The position numbers were made by a program, and so were the translations under genes. Shown here in pieces: positions 1 through 38,270 of a stretch of 38,555 bases of DNA. The notes beneath the pieces are model-generated. The model was not told the origin of the DNA and ran no database searches. It saw only the letters and a list, made by a program, of their open reading frames with translations. Origin of the DNA: a virus (taxonomy: Duplodnaviria > Heunggongvirae > Uroviricota > Caudoviricetes); the IMG/VR virus record IMGVR_UViG_2537562091_000004, one strand, 5' to 3'. Numbering within the stretch: the stretch's first letter is position 1; each line of letters opens with the position of its first letter.

Positions 1-438
1 AGGCCGCAGTCGGTAACCTCGCGCATACAGCCGGGCAGTGACGTCATCGTCTGCGCGGAAATGGACGAACAGTGGGGCTATGTCGGGGCTAAATCGCGCC
101 AGCGCTGGCTGTTTTACGCGTATGACAGGCTCCGGAAGACGGTTGTTGCGCACGTATTCGGTGAACGCACTATGGCGACGCTGGGGCGTCTTATGAGCCT
201 GCTGTCACCCTTTGACGTGGTGATATGGATGACGGATGGCTGGCCGCTGTATGAATCCCGCCTGAAGGGAAAGCTGCACGTAATCAGCAAGCGATATACG
301 CAGCGAATTGAGCGGCATAACCTGAATCTGAGGCAGCACCTGGCACGGCTGGGACGGAAGTCGCTGTCGTTCTCAAAATCGGTGGAGCTGCATGACAAAG
401 TCATCGGGCATTATCTGAACATAAAACACTATCAATAA
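1..438 (+). CDS. insB: IS1 transposase InsB reading frame, 5'-truncated by the window edge
   Basis: Translation ...[36 protein letters not shown]...HYLNIKHYQ is colinear with IS1 InsB from memory; frame is open from position 1. Confidence 0.85.
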
Positions 439-453
439 GTTGGAGTCATTACC
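1..453 (+). mobile_element. IS1-family insertion sequence, 3' portion (5' part lies outside the window); terminal inverted repeat at about 431-453
   Basis: InsB-frame ORF runs open from base 1; the terminal sequence atcaataagttggagtcattacc matches the IS1 end as I recall it. Confidence 0.85.
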
Positions 454-461
454 AAATATTT

Positions 462-1127
462 ATGACTATTGCTGATTTCAAACGGCCTAAATTGGAGCTC
501 CCAAACGGGGCAAACAAACTACTACTGCACTCTTGCTGTGCTCCATGTTCCGGTGAAGTGATGGAGGCGCTTCAGGCCTCGGGAATCGACTACACCATCT
601 TTTTCTACAACCCGAACATTCATCCTCAGAAAGAGTATTTAATTCGTAAGGATGAAAATATTCGCTTTGCTGAACAACACGGCGTGCCGTTTATCGATGC
701 TGATTACGACACCGACAACTGGTTTGAACGTGCCAAAGGAATGGAATGGGAGCCTGAGAGGGGGATCCGTTGTACCATGTGTTTTGACATGCGTTTTGAG
801 CGGACAGCGTTGTACGCTGCTGAAAATGGTTTCAGTGTGATCAGCAGTTCACTGGGCATTTCACGCTGGAAAAATATGCAGCAGGTTAACGAGTGTGGGC
901 GGCGAGCTGTTGCGCATTATCCGGGTATGGTGTACTGGGATTATAACTGGCGCAAGCAGGGCGGCTCGTCCCGTATGATTGAAATCAGCAAGCGCGAAAA
1001 ATTCTATCAGCAGGAATATTGTGGCTGTGTGTATTCTCTGCGCGATACCAATCTACACCGCAAATCTCAGGGACGCCCTCTTATCAAAATTGGCCAACTC
1101 CACTACGGAAAAGAAGAGAAGGAGTGA
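462..1127 (+). CDS. DUF208/QueH-like putative epoxyqueuosine reductase (tRNA queuosine pathway), Cys-rich
   Basis: 221 aa ORF with N-terminal HSCCAPCS motif, CTMCFD and a C-terminal YCGCVYS cysteine cluster, as I recall for QueH; starts 8 bp after the IS1 end with no clear SD. Confidence 0.5.
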
Positions 1128-1159
1128 TTTTATGGATCACCTTTCTGATTGATTTCATA

Positions 1160-1188
1160 TTGGCGAGGTGACGTGAGTTAAGTAGAAT
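1160..1188 (+). promoter_or_regulatory. Candidate sigma70 promoter upstream of hok (TTGGCG-17-TAGAAT)
   Basis: Hexamers at 1160-1165 and 1183-1188 with a 17 nt spacer; motif match only. Confidence 0.3.
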
Positions 1189-1364
1189 GGCTGCGGGTGC
1201 TTGAGGCTATCTGTCTCAGGCATGAACACTGAAAGGCAGATAGAGAAAAGCCCCAGTTAACATTTCGCGTCCTGCAAGACGCTTAACATTAATCTGAGGC
1301 CCAATCTATGTCTCACAAATGTAGGTTAGCCTCTTACGTGCCGAAAGGCAAGGGGAAGCAGGCT

Positions 1365-1520
1365 ATGAAGCAGCAAAAGGCGATGTTAATCGCCCTGATC
1401 GTCATCTGTTTAACCGTCATAGTGACGGCACTGGTAACGAGGAAAGACCTCTGCGAGGTACGACTCCGAACCGGCCAGACGGAGGTCGCTGTCTTCACAG
1501 CTTACGAACCTGAGGAGTAA
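1365..1520 (+). CDS. hokD: Hok/Gef-family type I toxin (small membrane peptide), HokD/RelF-like
   Basis: MKQQKAMLIALIVICLTVIVTALVTRKDLCEVRLRTGQTEVAVFTAYEPEE is near-identical to Hok/Gef peptides as I remember them; the ORF-track start at 1308 is an in-frame upstream extension. Confidence 0.8.
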   Translation: MKQQKAMLIALIVICLTVIVTALVTRKDLCEVRLRTGQTEVAVFTAYEPEE

Positions 1521-1589
1521 GAGACCTGGCGGGGGAGAAATCCCTCGCCACCTCTGATGTGTCAGGCATCCTCAACGCACCCGCACTTA

Positions 1590-1617
1590 ACCCGGTTCGG
1601 CGGGTTTTGTTTTTTTC
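1590..1617 (+). terminator. Putative intrinsic terminator downstream of hok
   Basis: acccg-gttcgg-cgggt stem-loop followed by tttgttttttt. Confidence 0.4.
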
Positions 1618-1687
1618 TGGCATTCTGGTTTACAATTCGCACGTCAGCCTGAACACCTGACACCTGCTGCGCCAGCAGAGAAAACAG

Positions 1688-1960
1688 ATGGTGCACAAAA
1701 CCAAATTTCACAATTCTGATACCGACCTTGCCATCCGGCATGGGCGGCGTTCACACGCATTTAAAACCGACTGGTACCAACACCCACCATGTACTGAAGA
1801 ACAGGCCGAATGGCTAATTCATAACTACCGCAGACGCGGATACGAGATTAAGAAAGCCCTCAGCCTCGATTATCGTCACTGGATAATCTCCGTCAGGCTT
1901 CCTTACTCTGAACGCCCACCGCGTCCGTCCCGCACATTCCAGCAACGCATCTGGAGGTAA
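1688..1960 (+). CDS. Hypothetical nin-region protein (occupies the position of Qin rem)
   Basis: 90 aa ORF, stop 1 nt before the next gene start (tightly coupled); no motif recognised. Confidence 0.45.
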   Translation: MVHKTKFHNSDTDLAIRHGRRSHAFKTDWYQHPPCTEEQAEWLIHNYRRRGYEIKKALSLDYRHWIISVRLPYSERPPRPSRTFQQRIWR

Positions 1961-1961
1961 C

Positions 1962-3017
1962 GTGCGGGTATTACTTCGACCTGTTCTGGTACCGGAACTC
2001 GGGCTGGTGATCGTTAAGCCGGGCCGTGAATCCATGCCGGTATTCCACAATACCCGGGTACTGGTGGAGCCGGAACCGAAAAGCATGCGTAATCTGCCGT
2101 CCGGGGTCGTTCCTGCCGTTCGCCAGCCGCTGGCGGAGGATAAATCATTACTGCCATTTTTCAGCGACGAACGAGTGATTCGTGCTGCTGGTGGCGCTGG
2201 CGCATTGTCTGACTGGTTACTGCGCCATGTTAAATCCTGCCAGTGGCCACACGGCGATTATCACCACAGTGAAACCGTCATTCACCGTTATGGTACCGGC
2301 GCAATGGTGTTGTGCTGGCACTGCGACAACCAGCTGCGCGACCAGACCTCCGAATCACTCGGGCAACTTGCTCACCAAAACCTGTTTGCATGGATGATTG
2401 ACGTCATACGCCATGCAATGAATGGCTCGCAGGAACGGGAATTATCGCTGGCTGAATTATCCTGGTGGGCGGTCCGCAATCAGGTGGCGGACGCGCTACC
2501 GGAAGCGGTATTACGTCGTTCGCTGGGGTTGCGTGCGGAAAAAATCCGCTCAATGTACCGTGAAAGCGACATCGTACCGGGAGAGCAGACCGCCACCAGC
2601 ATACTGAAGCAGCGCACAAAAAATCTTGCGCCGCTGCCTCACGCCCACCAGCAAAACCCGCCACAGGAAAAGACGGTGGTCAGCATTGCCGTTGATCCGG
2701 AGTCACCGGCTCAGTATCTCCAGCGCCAGAAATCACAACGGGAAGAGATGCCTGTATACACGCGTTGGGTAAAAACGCAGAAATGCATGACGTGTGGCAA
2801 TCAGGCAGATGATCCGCATCACATCATTGGTCATGGACTGGGAGGGATGGGAACAAAGGCTGATGATTTGTTTGTTATTCCGCTGTGCCGTAAATGCCAT
2901 AGCGAACTACACGCCGGGGTAAAAGATTTTGAAGAAAAACACGGCAGCCAGCTGTTGTTGCTGATTCGTTTTTTAATGCACGCGAGAAATTCGGGTGTTT
3001 TGAAGTGGAAAGCATAA
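1962..3017 (+). CDS. YdfU-like (DUF968) prophage protein with C-terminal Cys/His zinc-ribbon or HNH-like motif
   Basis: 351 aa; GTG start after a GGAGG SD; C-terminus CMTCGNQADDPHHIIGHGLGG...CRKCHSELH; size and position match Qin ydfU. Confidence 0.55.
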   Translation: MRVLLRPVLVPELGLVIVKPGRESMPVFHNTRVLVEPEPKSMRNLPSGVVPAVRQPLAEDKSLLPFFSDERVIRAAGGAGALSDWLLRHVKSCQWPHGDYHHSETVIHRYGTGAMVLCWHCDNQLRDQTSESLGQLAHQNLFAWMIDVIRHAMNGSQERELSLAELSWWAVRNQVADALPEAVLRRSLGLRAEKIRSMYRESDIVPGEQTATSILKQRTKNLAPLPHAHQQNPPQEKTVVSIAVDPESPAQYLQRQKSQREEMPVYTRWVKTQKCMTCGNQADDPHHIIGHGLGGMGTKADDLFVIPLCRKCHSELHAGVKDFEEKHGSQLLLLIRFLMHARNSGVLKWKA

Positions 3018-3398
3018 ATGACTGAACGCATAGAATTTGTTTTGCCTTACCCGCCAACGGTGAACACTTACTGGCGTCGTCGTGGCAGCACATATTTTGT
3101 ATCAAAAGCCGGGGAGCGTTATCGCCGGGCAGTGGCGCTTATTGTTCGCCAGCAGCGGCTGAAATTAAGCCTGTCCGGAAGGTTGGCAATAAAAATTATT
3201 GCAGAACCACCGGATAAGCGCCGCCGTGACCTGGACAATATTCTGAAAGCGCCGCTGGATGCGCTGACGCATGCGGGGTTGCTAATGGACGATGAGCAGT
3301 TTGATGAAATCAATATCGTTCGTGCTCAGCCAGTATCTGGTGGACGTCTGGGGGTGAAGATTTACCCCATAATGCTTGAAGGGCAGGTCAAAAAATGA
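3018..3398 (+). CDS. rusA: RusA-family Holliday junction resolvase
   Basis: 126 aa; LPYPPTVNTYWRRRG...DKRRRDLDNILKAPLDALTHAGLLMDD matches RusA motifs including the catalytic RRRDLDN block. Confidence 0.85.
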   Translation: MTERIEFVLPYPPTVNTYWRRRGSTYFVSKAGERYRRAVALIVRQQRLKLSLSGRLAIKIIAEPPDKRRRDLDNILKAPLDALTHAGLLMDDEQFDEINIVRAQPVSGGRLGVKIYPIMLEGQVKK

Positions 3399-4216
3399 AA
3401 CTGGAAGATTTACCGAAATACTACTCCCCAAAATCCCCCGGCCTGACTGATGCATCGGCCTCAACGTCGAAAGATGCGCTGAGTATCACTGATGTGATGG
3501 CCGCGCAGGGCATGACACAGAATCGGGCTGAGATGGGGTTTTCTGCGTTCCTTGGGAAAATGGGCATTAGTATGAATGACAGAGAGCGGGCAACAGAATT
3601 GCTGACAGAATATGCACTCAGTCGGTGTGATCGCGTGGCGGCGTTAAGAAAACTCCCGGCAGAAATAAAACCGGTAGTGATGCGCATTATGGCTTCGTAC
3701 GCTTTTGAGGATTATGCCCGCAGCGCAGCGAGTAAAAAGCAGTGCCCTTGTTGCTATGGGGAAAAATTTATTGAAAGCGTAGTTTTTACAAACAAGGTCC
3801 AGTATCCGGATGGTAAGCCGCCGGTATGGGCAAAGTGTACGAAAGGTGTGTATCCGTCTTACTGGGAAGAATGGAAAAAAGTCAGGGAGGTGGTAAAAGT
3901 TGCCTGTCCGGAGTGTGGCGGAAAGGGTGAGGTTTCCACCGCCTGTAAGGATTGCCGTGGGCGTGGTGTCGCCATTCATCGTGAAGAGTCGGTAAAACGT
4001 GGTATGCCTGTTATCAGAGACTGCCAGCGTTGTGGTGGTCGTGGCTGTGAAAGACTACCATCAACGGAGGCATTTAATGCCATATGCAAAGTGACGAGTG
4101 CTATCACGCTTGATACGTGGAAAAAATCAGTGAAACGCTTTTACGATACGTTGGTGGTTCGGTTTGACATTGAAGAGGCATGGGCGGAGCGGCAGTTAAA
4201 GAGGGTAACGCGATAG
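3395..4216 (+). CDS. Late-gene antiterminator Q (Qin/82-type, zinc-finger containing)
   Basis: 273 aa with CPECGGKG...CKDCRGRG...CQRCGGRG Cys clusters; ATGA overlap with rusA; immediately upstream of a promoter plus short-transcript terminator, as for Q/pR'/tR'. Confidence 0.65.
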   Translation: MKLEDLPKYYSPKSPGLTDASASTSKDALSITDVMAAQGMTQNRAEMGFSAFLGKMGISMNDRERATELLTEYALSRCDRVAALRKLPAEIKPVVMRIMASYAFEDYARSAASKKQCPCCYGEKFIESVVFTNKVQYPDGKPPVWAKCTKGVYPSYWEEWKKVREVVKVACPECGGKGEVSTACKDCRGRGVAIHREESVKRGMPVIRDCQRCGGRGCERLPSTEAFNAICKVTSAITLDTWKKSVKRFYDTLVVRFDIEEAWAERQLKRVTR

Positions 4217-4221
4217 TGTTG

Positions 4222-4249
4222 TTGATTTTTCCCGAATCTGTGGTAAATT
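4222..4249 (+). promoter_or_regulatory. Candidate late promoter pR' (TTGATT-16-TAAATT), probably with the Q-utilisation site
   Basis: Hexamers at 4222-4227 and 4244-4249, just after Q and about 50-75 nt before a strong terminator. Confidence 0.45.
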
Positions 4250-4298
4250 TGCTCTAACGATGGGCGTTTTATGCCTGGCGTTAGAAGATTTTTTACAC

Positions 4299-4320
4299 CC
4301 CGCCGCCTGGCGGGTTTTTT
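4299..4320 (+). terminator. Intrinsic terminator, tR'-like (ends a short 6S-like late leader transcript)
   Basis: cccgcc-gcct-ggcggg hairpin followed by tttttt. Confidence 0.7.
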
Positions 4321-4442
4321 ATGACTGAAATCGCGTCAGTACAGTAAACGCGCTGGTGGCGGTGAATACCTGTCTTTCAGCTTGCTGGCTTTTTCGACAA
4401 GAGTTATTGGTGTGTCACGTTAACCGGAAAAGGGAAAAAGAC

Positions 4443-4640
4443 ATGCTAAAACAGCAGGATATGACAGAAACCGCCAGAGTAGTGTTTAATGAATTAAGCG
4501 TTACCGAACCGGCGACAGTCGGGGAGATTGCACAGAATACTTACCTTTCACGCGAACGCTGCCAGTTAATACTGACCCAGCTGGTTATGGCGGGTCTGGC
4601 AGACTATCAGTTCGGTTGTTACAGACGCCTTCCGCAGTGA
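4443..4640 (+). CDS. Small hypothetical protein, possible winged-helix DNA-binding fold
   Basis: 65 aa from the internal ATG at 4443 (MLKQQDMTETARVV...TVGEIAQNTYLSRERCQLILTQLVMAGL); first ORF after tR'. Confidence 0.4.
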   Translation: MLKQQDMTETARVVFNELSVTEPATVGEIAQNTYLSRERCQLILTQLVMAGLADYQFGCYRRLPQ

Positions 4641-4651
4641 AGGCTTTTTTA
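4627..4651 (+). terminator. Intrinsic terminator overlapping the stop codon of the small ORF
   Basis: gccttc-cgcagt-gaaggc hairpin followed by ttttttatttg. Confidence 0.55.
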
Positions 4652-4790
4652 TTTGTGGTAAATGGGCGGCTGGTGGGTGTTAGGGGCACCCACCAGCCAT
4701 CTGCTCATGCGTTGGGTTCACAAGCAAACCTCAGGCCCACTGCTTTGCGCAAAAGCAGAATGAGCCTATCAGAGACAGGCTTAATGATCC

Positions 4791-5840
4791 ATGCTTAATA
4801 CTGTAAAAATATCCAGTTGTGAGTTAATCAACGCCGACTGCCTGGAATTTATCCGGTCGTTACCCGAAAATTCTGTTGACCTGATAGTCACGGACCCGCC
4901 GTACTTTAAAGTGAAGCCTGAGGGCTGGGATAACCAGTGGAAGGGCGACGATGATTACCTGAAGTGGCTGGACCAGTGTCTGGCGCAGTTCTGGCGGGTG
5001 CTGAAACCTGCCGGAAGTCTTTACCTGTTCTGTGGTCATCGCCTGGCATCTGATATCGAAATCATGATGCGTGAACGCTTCAGTGTGCTGAACCATATTA
5101 TCTGGGCGAAGCCGTCCGGACGCTGGAACGGATGCAACAAGGAAAGCCTGCGGGCGTATTTCCCCGCCACAGAGCGCATTCTGTTCGCGGAACATTATCA
5201 GGGGCCGTATCGTCCGAAAGATGCCAGGTATGCGGCGAAGGGCAGTGCACTGAAACAGCATGTGATGGCCCCGCTGATTTCTTACTTTCGTGATGCGCGC
5301 GCGGCCCTGGGGATAACGGCAAAACAGATTGCAGATGCCACAGGAAAGAAAAACATGGTGTCGCACTGGTTCAGTGCCAGTCAGTGGCAGCTACCGAACG
5401 AAAGCGATTATCTGAAATTACAGTCGCTGTTTGCCCGGGTGGCAGAAGAGAAACATCAGCGCGGTGAACTGGAAAAGCCCCACCACCAGCTGGTTGATAC
5501 GTATACGTCACTGAACCGGCAGTATGTGGAGCTGCAGAGTGAATATAAGCATCTGCGGCGGTATTTTGGTGTGACGGCGCAGGTGCCGTACACGGATGTG
5601 TGGACACATAAACCGGTGCAGTTCTATCCCGGGAAACATCCGTGCGAAAAACCGGCAGAAATGCTGCAGCAGATAATCAGCGCAAGCAGTCGTCCGGGTG
5701 ACCTGGTTGCAGATTTTTTTATGGGCTCAGGTTCAACGGTAAAAGCGGCACTGGCGCTCGGGCGTCGTGCGATTGGCGTTGAACTGGAGACCGGACGTTT
5801 TGAGCAGACAGTCAGGGAAGTTCAGGATTTAATCGTTTGA
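4791..5840 (+). CDS. DNA methyltransferase, amino-MTase (N6-adenine or N4-cytosine) with DPPY motif IV and C-terminal FxGxG SAM motif
   Basis: 349 aa; LIVTDPPYF near the N-terminus, DFFMGSGST near the C-terminus (beta-class motif order), with a long insertion between. Confidence 0.85.
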   Translation: MLNTVKISSCELINADCLEFIRSLPENSVDLIVTDPPYFKVKPEGWDNQWKGDDDYLKWLDQCLAQFWRVLKPAGSLYLFCGHRLASDIEIMMRERFSVLNHIIWAKPSGRWNGCNKESLRAYFPATERILFAEHYQGPYRPKDARYAAKGSALKQHVMAPLISYFRDARAALGITAKQIADATGKKNMVSHWFSASQWQLPNESDYLKLQSLFARVAEEKHQRGELEKPHHQLVDTYTSLNRQYVELQSEYKHLRRYFGVTAQVPYTDVWTHKPVQFYPGKHPCEKPAEMLQQIISASSRPGDLVADFFMGSGSTVKAALALGRRAIGVELETGRFEQTVREVQDLIV

Positions 5841-5889
5841 AACGGATGAGATTGCAGAATTAATTACGCACCATTATTATTCTGCTCCC

Positions 5890-5965
5890 GGCCCTTTAGC
5901 TCAGTGGTGAGAGCGAGCGACTCATAATCGCCAGGTCGCTGGTTCAAATCCAGCAAGGGCCACCA
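5890..5965 (+). tRNA. ileZ: tRNA with CAU anticodon (tRNA-Ile2/Met type, like phage ileZ), CCA encoded
   Basis: Cloverleaf folded by hand: acceptor ggccctt/aagggcc, D-arm gctc/gagc, anticodon loop ctCATaa, T-arm ggttcaaatcc. Confidence 0.85.
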
Positions 5966-5972
5966 TCACATA

Positions 5973-6049
5973 CCGCCATTAGCTCATCAGGAAAGAGCGC
6001 CAGCCTTCGAAGCTGGTTGCGCGGAGTTCGGGTCCCCGAAGGCGGTCCA
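5973..6049 (+). tRNA. tRNA-Arg(UCG)-like; imperfect acceptor and T stems, possibly degenerate
   Basis: Anticodon stem ccagc/gctgg with loop ctTCGaa; T-loop ttcgggt; one mismatch each in the acceptor and T stems when folded by hand. Confidence 0.5.
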
Positions 6050-6062
6050 TTATCTGTATCCT

Positions 6063-6139
6063 GCGTTGTTAGCTCAGCCGGACAGAGCAATTGCCTTCTA
6101 AGCAATCGGTCACTGGTTCGAATCCAGTACAACGCGCCA
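6063..6139 (+). tRNA. tRNA-Arg (UCU anticodon), CCA encoded
   Basis: Acceptor gcgttgt/acaacgc, D-arm gctc/gagc, anticodon stem attgc/gcaat with loop ctTCTaa, T-arm actgg-ttcgaat-ccagt. Confidence 0.85.
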
Positions 6140-6154
6140 CACTTATTTTCCCTG

Positions 6155-6178
6155 GCTCGCTTTTGCGGGCTTTTTTTT
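6155..6178 (+). terminator. Intrinsic terminator after the tRNA cluster
   Basis: gctcgc-tttt-gcgggc hairpin followed by tttttttt. Confidence 0.55.
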
Positions 6179-6184
6179 AAATGT

Positions 6185-6397
6185 CTCACAATTCAGGCGG
6201 TTGACTGTTGTCTGGTTTGCGGGGAGTTTGTTAAAAGAAACTGGCATGGTGAATCCCCCTGTGCGGAGGGGCAATCAGCGAGTAGGTATATGGGATAATC
6301 GCGGATTCAGGTGCTGGTACTGAATTCACCGGGAGGCACCCGGCACCATGCAATGGCACATAGCGCCACTCTCCAGCCCCTCTCCGGAGGGGCTTTT
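6185..6397 (+). repeat. Copy 1 of a diverged tandem structured element of about 215-230 bp (candidate sRNA unit) ending in an intrinsic terminator
   Basis: Shares with copy 2: ctcacaattcag, TTGAC box, gcatggtgaatccccctg.gcggaggggc, caccgggaggcacccggcaccatg, and terminator gcccctc-tccg-gaggggc + tttt (6376-6397). Confidence 0.5.
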
Positions 6398-6588
6398 CTG
6401 TGCCGGATACATCACAGTTTCTGGAACCTTAGGTACTACAGTATCAGTCAGGGTGCTATATTTTCAGATGTGATGAAAGCCTGTCAGCAGGCAGGGCGTA
6501 TCGGAAATGACCCAGTAGAGAAAACGTTGACTCAGATACCGGTGCTGAGTTACCGGGAAACCGGCATCACATGACCGCTATCCTTCCA

Positions 6589-6615
6589 GGCCCATCCGCT
6601 CCGGTGGGCCTTTTT
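6589..6615 (+). terminator. Intrinsic terminator between the two repeat copies
   Basis: ggccca(t)ccg-ctc-cggtgggcc hairpin followed by ttttt. Confidence 0.5.
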
Positions 6616-6652
6616 ACTGCAGAAAACAGGTTCCCCGTTAAATGCTATGTTG

Positions 6653-6883
6653 CTCACAATTCAGTAAGTTGACAGTTGCCTGTCAGACTGGGCATTTGTT
6701 AAAAAAATTTCGCATGGTGAATCCCCCTGAGCGGAGGGGCGACTGGTGACGGTATAATCTCTGATTATCAAAACGAGAATGACGCGGGTTTAGTGGCACC
6801 GGGCTGAACTCACCGGGAGGCACCCGGCACCATGTGCATGATGATACAGATACGCGGCTTTAGCCCCTCTCCGGAGGGGCTTT
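6653..6883 (+). repeat. Copy 2 of the tandem structured element (candidate sRNA unit) with an internal TATAAT box and terminal terminator
   Basis: Same conserved blocks as copy 1; perfect TATAAT inside the unit; terminator gcccctc-tccg-gaggggc + ttt at 6863-6883. Confidence 0.5.
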
Positions 6884-6892
6884 CTTATGGAC

Positions 6893-6921
6893 AAAAAAAG
6901 CCCGCGCTGGGAGACGCGGGC
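6893..6921 (-). terminator. Intrinsic terminator readable only on the minus strand (possible end of a small leftward RNA)
   Basis: Minus strand reads gcccgcg-tctcccag-cgcgggc followed by ttttttt; the + strand has an A-run before the hairpin and no T-run after. Confidence 0.5.
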
Positions 6922-7114
6922 GGCAAGGAATAAACAATAAAACGTGAAGTAATATTTCAGCTGGCGAATAATACCCCATAGTAATCACTCTGCGCAACTG
7001 CGCGGTCTTTTTCGAATTGCGGGCTGTAGTCTCCCTTCTGCCATTGTCCTGTAACTTCCGGACTTCAGCCTGCTCCTTATCTGACTCACAACATTATCCC
7101 GCCCGGGAGGATTC

Positions 7115-36600: not shown

Positions 36601-36637
36601 AAACATCGCATTTAACTATATTGTGAGGCTTGCATAA
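33611..36637 (+). CDS. stf: Side tail fibre protein (StfR/Stf-like) with long Ala/Ser-rich repeat region and His-rich C-terminal domain
   Basis: 1008 aa; N-terminus [22 protein letters not shown]..., A/S-rich repeats in the middle, C-terminal GAHTHSLSG...[31 protein letters not shown]. Confidence 0.85.
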
Positions 36638-37221
36638 TGGCATTCAGAATGAGTGAACAAGCACGGACCATAAAAATTTATAATCTGCTGGCCGGAACTA
36701 ATGAATTTATTGGTGAAGGTGACGCATATATTCCGCCTCATACAGGTCTGCCAGCAAACAGTACCGATATTGCACCACCAGATATTCCTGCTGGCTTTGT
36801 GGCTGTTTTCAACAGTGATGAGGCATCGTGGCATCTCGTTGAAGACCATCGGGGTAAAACGGTTTATGACGTAGCGTCAGGGGACGAGTTATTTATTTCT
36901 GAACTCGGTCCGTTACCGGAAAATGTTACCTGGTTATCGCCGGAAGGGGAGTTTTAGAAGTGGAACGGCACAGCCTGGGTGAAGGATACGGAAGCAGAAA
37001 AACTGTTCCGGATCCGGGAGGCGGAAGAAACAAAAAACAACCTGATGCAGGTAGCCAGTGAGCATATTGCGCCGCTTCAGGATGCTGCAGATCTGGAAAT
37101 TGCAACGGAGGAAGAAACCTCATTGCTGGAAGCCTGGAAAAAGTATCGGGTATTGCTGAACCGTGTTGATACATCAACTGCACCTGATATTGAGTGGCCT
37201 GTAAATCCTGTCAGGGAGTAA
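36637..37221 (+). pseudogene. tfa: Tail fibre assembly protein Tfa interrupted by an in-frame TAG (36955-36957)
   Basis: ORFs 36637..36957 and 36979..37221 are in the same frame; lambda-Tfa-like sequence is continuous across the stop (…[24 protein letters not shown]…). Confidence 0.75.
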
Positions 37222-37270
37222 TCATTGGGATTATGCCGCAGCACGTCTTAAGCAAGAACGTGCTGCGGTT
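37056..37270 (+). repeat. Direct repeat copy 1 (tfa 3' end plus downstream hairpin ccgcagcacgt...acgtgctgcgg)
   Basis: About 215 bp region repeated at 38106-38320 with high identity, including the imperfect palindrome after the stop codon. Confidence 0.7.
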
Positions 37271-37275
37271 GGATG

Positions 37276-37944
37276 CTATTTTTTCCCTGAAGCGGAAAAC
37301 ATTACTACAGTACCTTGAACCTTGGTTTTAACATTCTCGAAATGCTCTGAGAGTATATGTGTTAAGCCTTCTTCGGAATCTTTTGTGTTTGAAAAGATGC
37401 CTTTCTGATTGTAAATGCGCATCAGTTTTTGACCGAAGCTATTGTGCACAACTCCATCGCCAAGAATTGTGGCTCCGTATAGAGTTCCATCGTCAGTTAA
37501 GGCCTGCGCCGCATTGCGTATTACACAGCTTTTTGTAGATATATTTCCAGGCAGGCAGTGAAGAAGGTAAAACATGGAAATGGAATCAAATTGACCATGT
37601 AACGCCGCGGGATAAGGTTCAAAAACATCATGGCTAATTTTATGTTTAATTTTTGATTCCCCAGCCCTTGTAGATGCCGCGTTCAGGCTAGCTTCGTTCA
37701 AATCCATTAAAGATATCAGACTACTCTCAGGTACGTGAGTAAGGTAAAACCCAGTTCCAACACCAATATCCAGATGGTTGTTACCTACATGTTCCAGAAA
37801 GTGTGGAAGAAGGTGTTCCTTTGTAGGACATCCCCATGCAAGCCGATTTGATACTCCCAAAACCCACCAGTCATAAAGCTTTAGGGTAAGTGGTGTATAA
37901 ATTTTAGCCCCATCATCTGTGTTTTTTTTCATTGATTTCACCAT
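37276..37944 (-). CDS. Class I SAM-dependent methyltransferase (AT-rich cargo gene on the opposite strand)
   Basis: 222 aa; SAM-binding motif I LDIGVGTGFY; lower GC than neighbours; substrate cannot be assigned from sequence. Confidence 0.7.
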   Translation of the reverse strand: MVKSMKKNTDDGAKIYTPLTLKLYDWWVLGVSNRLAWGCPTKEHLLPHFLEHVGNNHLDIGVGTGFYLTHVPESSLISLMDLNEASLNAASTRAGESKIKHKISHDVFEPYPAALHGQFDSISMFYLLHCLPGNISTKSCVIRNAAQALTDDGTLYGATILGDGVVHNSFGQKLMRIYNQKGIFSNTKDSEEGLTHILSEHFENVKTKVQGTVVMFSASGKK

Positions 37945-38000
37945 GTTATAGTTTTATTTGTGAATTAAATCAATTATGGCGATGAATTACAAGGGGTTAA

Positions 38001-38270
38001 ATGCTGCCGCAGCATAGCGATATTGAAATAGCCTGGTATGCTTCGATACAGCAGGAGCCGAATGGCTGGAAGATCGTCACCACACAGTTCTACATCCAGG
38101 AATTCAGTGAGTATATTGCGCCACTGCAGGATGCTGTAGATCTGGAAATCGCAACGGAGGAAGAAAGATCGTTGCTGGAGGCATGGAATAAATATCGGGT
38201 ATTGTTGAATCGTGTTGATACATCAACTGCACCTGATATTGAGTGGCCTGCAAATCCTGTCAGGGAGTAA
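38001..38270 (+). CDS. Truncated alternative tail-fibre-assembly (Tfa) C-terminal domain ORF
   Basis: 89 aa; last ~50 aa ([52 protein letters not shown]) duplicate the tfa C-terminus; N-terminus is unrelated. Confidence 0.45.

Follow-up and report, generated by a model that had tools for sequence, protein, structure and literature searches.

A predicted QueH epoxyqueuosine reductase as an accessory gene of temperate Escherichia coli phages, and a prophage copy with IS1 next to its start codon

Why a temperate phage of Escherichia coli should carry a gene for the last step of queuosine synthesis in tRNA, in a host which already possesses an enzyme for that step, and from where such a gene may be transcribed when an insertion sequence stands a few base pairs before its start codon, are the two questions raised by the locus described here. 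The locus lies at the left end of a stretch of viral DNA of 38,555 nucleotides (Caudoviricetes; IMG/VR record IMGVR_UViG_2537562091_000004), the whole of which is called the window below; the features on which the argument turns are the following, in positions of the window.

1-453, plus strand: right-hand part of IS1; the window begins inside the element (Pfam and NCBIfam matches, break in homology)
454-461, plus strand: residual native queH leader, the 8 bp AAATATTT between the end of IS1 and the ATG
462-1127, plus strand: queH, 221 aa with an ATG start, the end coordinate including the stop codon
5890-6139: three tRNA genes, CAU (Met by ARAGORN, Ile in RefSeq), Arg-UCG and Arg-UCU

An earlier note, made from the letters alone, had taken 454-1127 for a QueH-like gene of the DUF208 family carried as prophage cargo, with IS1 inserted 8 bp upstream, and had gone on to connect it with the tRNAs of the prophage, with 7-deazaguanine metabolism and with phage manipulation of translation. 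The observation itself is confirmed and its core (QueH, prophage cargo, an IS1 which apparently displaces the leader) was right, the extrapolations were not, and the note as a whole is partly supported. As to the feature, the open reading frame is real and 454 is the first base after IS1 (which ends at 453), the start codon lying at 462.

The queH reading frame and its prophage

The frame at 462-1127 is recognised by the Pfam QueH profile (PF02677; cut-off 23.5 bits) with a score of 221.6 bits and E=9.6e-66, over profile positions 1-174 of 175, and its nucleotide sequence is 100% identical to that of RefSeq genes named QueH; the N-terminus, MTIA(D/K)F(K/E)RPKL..., is common to the window protein and its relatives, which supports the ATG at 462. 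A sequence search of the PDB returns, as the only solved relatives, the structures of Thermotoga maritima QueH (7lc5 and mutants; E=7.6e-22). The AlphaFold2 model of the window protein, built on an alignment of 42 sequences (mean pLDDT 95.1, pTM 0.91), is matched by Foldseek at ranks 1-5 to all five T. maritima QueH entries, 7lc5 included, with target-normalised TM scores of 0.90-0.92 (0.92 for 7lc5) and an rmsd of 1.2-2.0 Å; the next matches, with TM below 0.4, are distant proteins of the adenine-nucleotide-alpha-hydrolase fold such as TtuA. The search of the NCBIfam models gave no QueH match for this frame, a result which is not counted against the identity since the Pfam, PDB and fold evidence agree.

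The protein contains the motifs HSCCAPC (residues 23-29), CxxC (C104 and C107) and CGC (C187-G188-C189). The conservation of the cysteines was assessed in an alignment of 63 sequences, composed of the query, T. maritima QueH and 61 full-length representatives drawn from 1.84 billion cluster representatives, among which 4,775 matches at E<=0.001 were obtained. All 63 sequences have cysteine at the positions of C25, C26, C104, C107, C187 and C189; at position 29 there is Cys in 59 of them and Asp in the other four (D13 of T. maritima among these), so that the window protein is of the majority, CCAPC form. The second alignment (n=42) returned the same invariant cysteines together with N52, Y59, R62, E99, R103, R111, K137, Q184 and G188, and 16 invariant columns agree between the two. 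The assignment of iron ligands in QueH rests here on conservation and on the titles of PDB entries (the T. maritima mutants C9S and D13N, altered in equivalent ligand residues, exist as such entries); the predicted metal ligands of the window protein are C25, C26, C29, C104, C107, C187 and C189, in agreement with the cluster ligands which the earlier note had expected. As judged in silico, every feature considered speaks for membership of the QueH family, and the frame appears to encode a functional-looking enzyme, predicted to be an iron-sulfur, cobalamin-independent protein converting epoxyqueuosine (oQ) to queuosine (Q) and, as a member of that family, to bind a [4Fe-4S] cluster together with an extra iron.

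The likeness to T. maritima QueH (PDB 7LC5) and to chromosomal QueH proteins thus comprises the full-length profile, the fold, the six invariant cysteines and the other invariant residues; the chromosomal proteins of Entero-, Gamma- and Alphaproteobacteria are 75-92% identical to the window protein. Unlike T. maritima QueH, which has Asp13 at the seventh ligand position, the window protein has Cys there, and it bears a C-terminal extension of 25 residues which the T. maritima protein lacks; it further differs from the known QueH proteins in being encoded on a temperate phage, in a host already provided with QueG. The identity of the gene is already known, in that RefSeq names the exact sequence QueH in hundreds of genomes, and all 30 of the matches listed, sampled over the full range of identity, bear the PGAP name 'epoxyqueuosine reductase QueH'. 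Among phage protein families, phrog_3217 of PHROGs matches the window protein (E=1.7e-138) under the label 'unknown function'; the profile sets in only at Met34 and so does not include the CCAPC motif.

A megablast search found queH in 995 of 5,426 complete E. coli genomes (about 18%), in 707 of them at an identity of at least 99%, and the exact window protein occurs in more than 25,000 blocks of a public assembly index. All contexts examined in E. coli are those of a Rac-like lambdoid prophage, in which queH is preceded by genes for an exonuclease, dicB, racR or another repressor, ydaS/ydaT, O/P-like replication genes, DUF1627 and DUF977, and followed by hokD/sok, DUF968, rusA, Q, a DNA methylase, three tRNAs and the lysis, terminase, head and tail genes. 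In nearly all of these contexts queH stands after DUF977 and before hok/DUF968/rusA/Q, and in ten further contexts the linkage of DUF977 and queH is kept with differing repressor, replication and Q modules. Positions 454-33000 of the window are 99.8-99.9% identical to a prophage of E. coli strain 20AR0300 (L003), save for the DUF968-rusA-Q block. A search of 50,697 GenBank phage records yielded a single credible isolated phage carrying queH, Escherichia phage HannyBb, whose QueH has 96.8% amino acid identity to that of the window and is annotated as 'hypothetical'; 190 viral contigs of IMG/VR match queH, and the best 80 of the 190 are essentially identical to the window allele. An 'Acinetobacter phage' of 330-380 kb, a 282-kb Staphylococcus record and short unannotated faecal contigs, all with QueH, appear to be bacterial DNA or unverified fragments; none of these was counted.

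The RefSeq contexts, the mosaic variants and HannyBb bear out the description of the gene as prophage cargo, and by its position queH reads as an accessory gene of the 'moron' type, placed between the replication module (DUF1627, DUF977) and the hok/sok-DUF968-rusA-Q block. With the morons of lambdoid phages (lom, bor, hok/sok or restriction-modification cassettes) it shares a variable presence at a fixed position between modules, a short stretch of upstream DNA that accompanies it from one phage background to the next, and a neighbouring slot which holds other cargo: hok/sok or, in one locus (L174, 3851-5861), a restriction-modification pair (a cytosine DNA methylase and an NgoMIV-like endonuclease) which replaces hok/sok 3' of queH and makes the slot a cargo hot spot. 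It differs from them in that no terminator was detected for it and its promoter is deduced from a conserved extended -10 element (see below), and in that the cargo is a housekeeping tRNA-modification enzyme, not a virulence or exclusion factor.

The same prophage copy is carried, at 100%, by Escherichia albertii. Outside Escherichia the nearest QueH proteins are those of Scandinavium (92% amino acid identity), Kluyvera (91%) and Enterobacter (88-90%), followed at 75-86% by those of Erwinia, Serratia, Photorhabdus, Providencia and many other Proteobacteria. No phage neighbours were found at the loci of Scandinavium, Kluyvera and Enterobacter or at the more distant ones, whose flanks are ordinary chromosomal genes (in one Enterobacter locus, L009, frames which by our own reading of unannotated translations resemble mnmA and icd), and synteny around queH is conserved within genera (Serratia, Rahnella, Photorhabdus). 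The ratio dN/dS is 0.046 between the window allele and that of HannyBb (dS 0.29), and 0.02-0.04 when the window allele is compared with two further prophage alleles and with the genes of Scandinavium and Kluyvera; among phage alleles it is 0.02-0.05 overall, which indicates strong purifying selection on the phage protein.

The native leader and the junction with IS1

In intact prophages queH is preceded by a spacer of 174 bp (8835-9008 in the intact prophage L001). Eleven upstream variants (that of L001 and ten others), taken from about 80 loci, were compared: four unrelated upstream contexts of phage queH converge about 70 bp 5' of the ATG, and TGCTACACT, some 43 nt before the ATG, is kept in all eleven. 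At the same distance, TGCTACA(A/C)T (an extended -10, that is TGn followed by a TAcAAT-like hexamer) is present in four of five aligned chromosomal copies, those of Scandinavium, Kluyvera, E. quasihormaechei and one Enterobacter (L010, with a one-base gap), the remaining copy (Enterobacter L009) having the hexamer with CG instead of TG. Over 77 genomic loci the pattern TGnTAnnnT occurs between -60 and -25 in 21, with a peak at -43; the expected number is 2.6 and the maximum in 200 shuffles was 7. From this conservation we infer that the extended -10 element is probably the own promoter of queH. The argument rests on conservation because scans find nothing either at the junction or in the native leader, a simple sigma-70 scan having returned no full -35/-10 promoter 5' of queH in the intact prophages. 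No canonical Shine-Dalgarno sequence is present in the last 20 nt or so before the ATG in the phage or chromosomal copies compared; the Rfam scan of positions 1-7000 returned no riboswitch or leader element for queH, its only matches being sok, tRNAs and STnc100.

Since the extended -10 is common to phage and chromosomal copies, the gene was probably captured together with its promoter; the most likely source, as far as the sequences compared allow a judgement, is an Enterobacteriaceae chromosome, from which queH would have been taken with about 70 bp of upstream DNA bearing the element. Downstream, no terminator-like site was found between the stop codon of queH (1127) and 1589, the first one coming after hok, so that queH is not a fully self-contained cassette.

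In the window the leader is cut short. The frame at 61-438 encodes the C-terminal 125 aa of the IS1 transposase (Pfam DDE_Tnp_IS1, E=2.9e-74; NCBIfam transpos_IS1, E=4.4e-37), and the IS1 part is matched in thousands of E. coli records; the insB frame stops at 438, and 453 is the last base of the terminal inverted repeat (...GGAGTCATTACC; ...AAGTTGGAGTCATTACC), the reverse complement of GGTAATGACTCCAACTTA, which we take to be the IS1 terminus, being found at 436-453. Homology between uninterrupted prophages and the window begins exactly at 454 (break 453|454). IS1 apparently displaces or removes the queH leader, the conserved TGCTACACT element included, and leaves only its last 8 bp. The suggestion that IS1 had replaced both the native promoter and the native Shine-Dalgarno sequence stands for the first, a conserved promoter-like element being displaced, and fails for the second, as there is no native Shine-Dalgarno to lose; GGAG in the end of IS1, 16 nt from the ATG, is too far away to serve well as one.

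The direction of insB points into queH, with 24 nt from the insB stop to the queH ATG, and IS1 ends reportedly create hybrid promoters; both points would suit an activation of queH by IS1, in which read-out, as the earlier note had it, or a hybrid promoter at its end leads to higher or constitutive expression. We regard such an activation as very unlikely: the sigma-70 (-35/-10) scan found no promoter-like site across the junction, and the -35-like TTGGAG noticed by inspection at 441-446 is misplaced, as its -10 would fall inside the reading frame and the transcript would start after the ATG. IS1, moreover, has a weak promoter of its own, which its product InsA represses, and its insertions are classically polar. 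Searches for the junction gave no match among the 5,426 complete E. coli genomes (megablast, at least 80% coverage across the junction), in the species-representative collection (exact-pattern scan) or among 164 retrieved loci (pattern search), and the 80 IMG/VR loci are among the collections without it; as it was found nowhere else, there is no sign of its spread by selection.

Poor expression of queH is what would be expected of the window copy, because IS1 removes the promoter element and IS1 transcription is weak. The insertion, 8 bp 5' of the ATG, would part an intact coding sequence from its promoter element, and what transcription it receives is probably limited to weak read-through of the IS1 transposase message, no other source being evident. 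The insertion looks recent, the reading frame being 100% identical to the common allele. The window does not reach the left end of IS1, so that a simple insertion and an IS1-mediated deletion of the left arm of the prophage look alike in it; after a simple insertion one would expect, to the left of the element, a direct repeat of 9 bp (AAATATTTA, or one in a neighbouring frame), followed by the remaining leader and DUF977. The copy can be seen as a natural promoter-knockout allele of queH.

Proposed role in queuosine maturation

QueH has been described as a non-orthologous replacement of QueG (PMC5372724, PMC6063277), an enzyme which depends on B12 and on an Fe-S cofactor (PMC4646009, PMC5175355), and the substrates of queuosine modification are the GUN-anticodon tRNAs for Asp, Asn, His and Tyr (PMC5372724). 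QueG of E. coli (yjeS/b4166; cobalamin- and [4Fe-4S]-dependent) and QueH carry out the same oQ34 to Q34 reaction on the same tRNAs; the two are unrelated in fold and cofactor, and it is QueG which needs imported B12. E. coli makes no B12 de novo and has to import it. The B12-dependent queG was found in all 5,426 complete E. coli genomes and is core, whereas queH is accessory (995 of 5,426); QueH thus invariably comes to E. coli as an additional, B12-independent means of performing a step that QueG already performs, and in queH-positive strains the two enzymes are present in the same cell, a co-occurrence which has been noted in Staphylococcus aureus (PMC13443448).

The reading which we consider probable is that a self-promoted, accessory QueH lets lysogens complete the conversion of oQ to Q without cobalamin, and that in the window this gene has been decoupled from its promoter. 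In ordinary lysogens queH would be transcribed from its own promoter, independently of the phage repressor, because the captured upstream DNA brings an extended -10 with it, and the enzyme would reduce oQ to Q at position 34 of tRNA-Asp, -Asn, -His and -Tyr. The likely benefit would be that Q maturation continues under scarcity of cobalamin, as suggested by the literature on QueG and QueH and by the link between cobalamin and Q maturation attributed to Frey et al. 1988, in the form in which that study is cited in PMC4646009 and PMC5175355. A deletion of queG was without effect on growth in one study (PMC11841063). Autonomous expression is weakened as a model by a possible alternative route of transcription for queH, that is the early-right operon of the phage. 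No difference in phenotype between oQ and Q has, to our knowledge, been established in E. coli.

That route belongs to another account of the gene, in which QueH serves the phage in lytic growth, as a delayed-early gene of the early-right operon which would complete Q on the tRNAs of the host and so make for an efficient reading of the NAU/NAC codons of late genes. It is suggested by the position of queH between the replication genes and Q, on the strand of the early-right operon, by the fact that no terminator-like site parts it from its neighbours, and by its retention on the virion-forming phage HannyBb. It is made unlikely by the promoter-like element, which is common to non-phage chromosomal copies and suggests autonomous expression; by the absence of queH from most relatives of the prophage (only 18% of genomes have the gene); and by codon usage, as the NAU fractions in 13 prophage genes alone are 0.63 for Asp, 0.48 for Asn, 0.53 for His and 0.58 for Tyr, without evident skew. 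We know, moreover, of no difference in decoding between oQ and Q. The same NAU/NAC usage gives no support to the idea, put forward in the earlier note, of a tuning of translation by the phage; nor could a link of QueH to the tRNAs of the prophage be upheld, since those tRNAs (CAU, Arg-UCG and Arg-UCU) are no queuosine substrates.

A last alternative is that QueH acts not on tRNA but on 7-deazaguanine bases in DNA, or in phage-host conflict (anti-restriction or defence). Phages do use preQ0-derived bases in their DNA (PMC6884629), and QueC-like proteins occur in defence systems (PMC13639016). With the phage 7-deazaguanine sets (DpdA with FolE/QueD/QueE/QueC; PMC6884629) queH has in common the queuosine/7-deazaguanine family of pathways; those sets act on DNA and stop at preQ0-derived bases, whereas here only the last, tRNA-specific step is encoded. 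No DpdA/Tgt transglycosylase and no genes of preQ0 synthesis are annotated on the prophages L003 or L001, or were seen in the scanned parts of the window; the role in 7-deazaguanine DNA metabolism which had been suggested earlier finds no partner on the 99.8%-identical prophage, where tgt/dpdA, queC, queD, queE and folE are not annotated. PADLOC gave no match for QueH, and the housekeeping QueH proteins of proteobacterial chromosomes share 75-92% identity with the window protein, which keeps every invariant residue. We know of no oQ-type base in DNA, and with these points taken together the DNA or defence role is scarcely credible.

Generalising the lysogenic reading, temperate E. coli phages would carry a self-promoted, cobalamin-independent QueH as a lysogenic-conversion gene, by which about one in five strains would be independent of imported B12 for Q; to this wider statement we give an even chance. 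If it is true, QueH would be the first case of a phage-borne enzyme confined to the tRNA branch of queuosine synthesis, and a difference in fitness in B12-poor niches would be possible; provided that lysogens express queH, one strain of E. coli would differ from another in the oQ or Q content of its tRNA under B12 limitation. In that event prophages would be a source of variation in the translation apparatus which can be tested cheaply. A survey of 2019 (Hutinet et al.) reported no homologues of QueA, QueG or QueH in the viruses analysed (PMC6884629), and our literature searches on QueH with phage or prophage returned no paper on a phage-borne QueH; the carriage by phages of a B12-independent, tRNA-specific queuosine enzyme is thus undescribed in the literature searched, a point of modest interest.

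Other features of the window

Directly 3' of queH lies a type I toxin-antitoxin locus, hok/sok, at 1195-1520, composed of sok RNA (1195-1370; Rfam, 120 bits) and the mok/hok frame (1308-1520; Pfam HOK_GEF, E=1.6e-22), with a promoter-like site before it at 1160-1188. Further on, the segment 1996-3802, which begins with DUF968, takes in rusA and ends within the 5' half of Q, is deleted in E. coli 20AR0300 (L003), where of the DUF968-rusA-Q block present in the window only a partial Q pseudogene remains. At 4791-5840, just 5' of the tRNA genes, a Type II-like DNA methyltransferase is encoded (PADLOC MTase_II, E=7e-166; in related loci Pfam N6_N4_Mtase), apparently an orphan, as no restriction partner is annotated nearby, and just after the tRNA trio, at 6215-6892, there are three tandem copies of the STnc100 sRNA, scoring 165, 136 and 30 bits, the third below the gathering score.

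The frame of a SASA-family (nanS-p-like) carbohydrate esterase at 7115-8961 is split into two overlapping frames by a deletion of 7 bp at 7845 relative to L003, so that it is probably a pseudogene; the truncated product is found also in the SRA assemblies SRR024151 and SRR035424. Between the lysis and terminase genes, at 11431-13060, a convergent, overlapping pair encodes a sce7726-family protein (plus strand) and a 'beta family' protein (minus strand), for which PADLOC returns cll (E=4e-31), PD-Lambda-2_C (E=4e-32) and beta (E=3.5e-10); the pair is a candidate for anti-phage defence cargo. Lastly, the tail-fibre assembly region at 36637-38270 looks disrupted: a single tfa-like gene is spread over the short frames 36637-36957 and 36979-37221, a further C-terminal tfa-like fragment is found at 38001-38270, and between these pieces, on the opposite strand at 37276-37944, there is a frame of 222 aa which belongs to phrog_2132 (unknown function) and which, by our own reading alone, resembles a SAM-methyltransferase.
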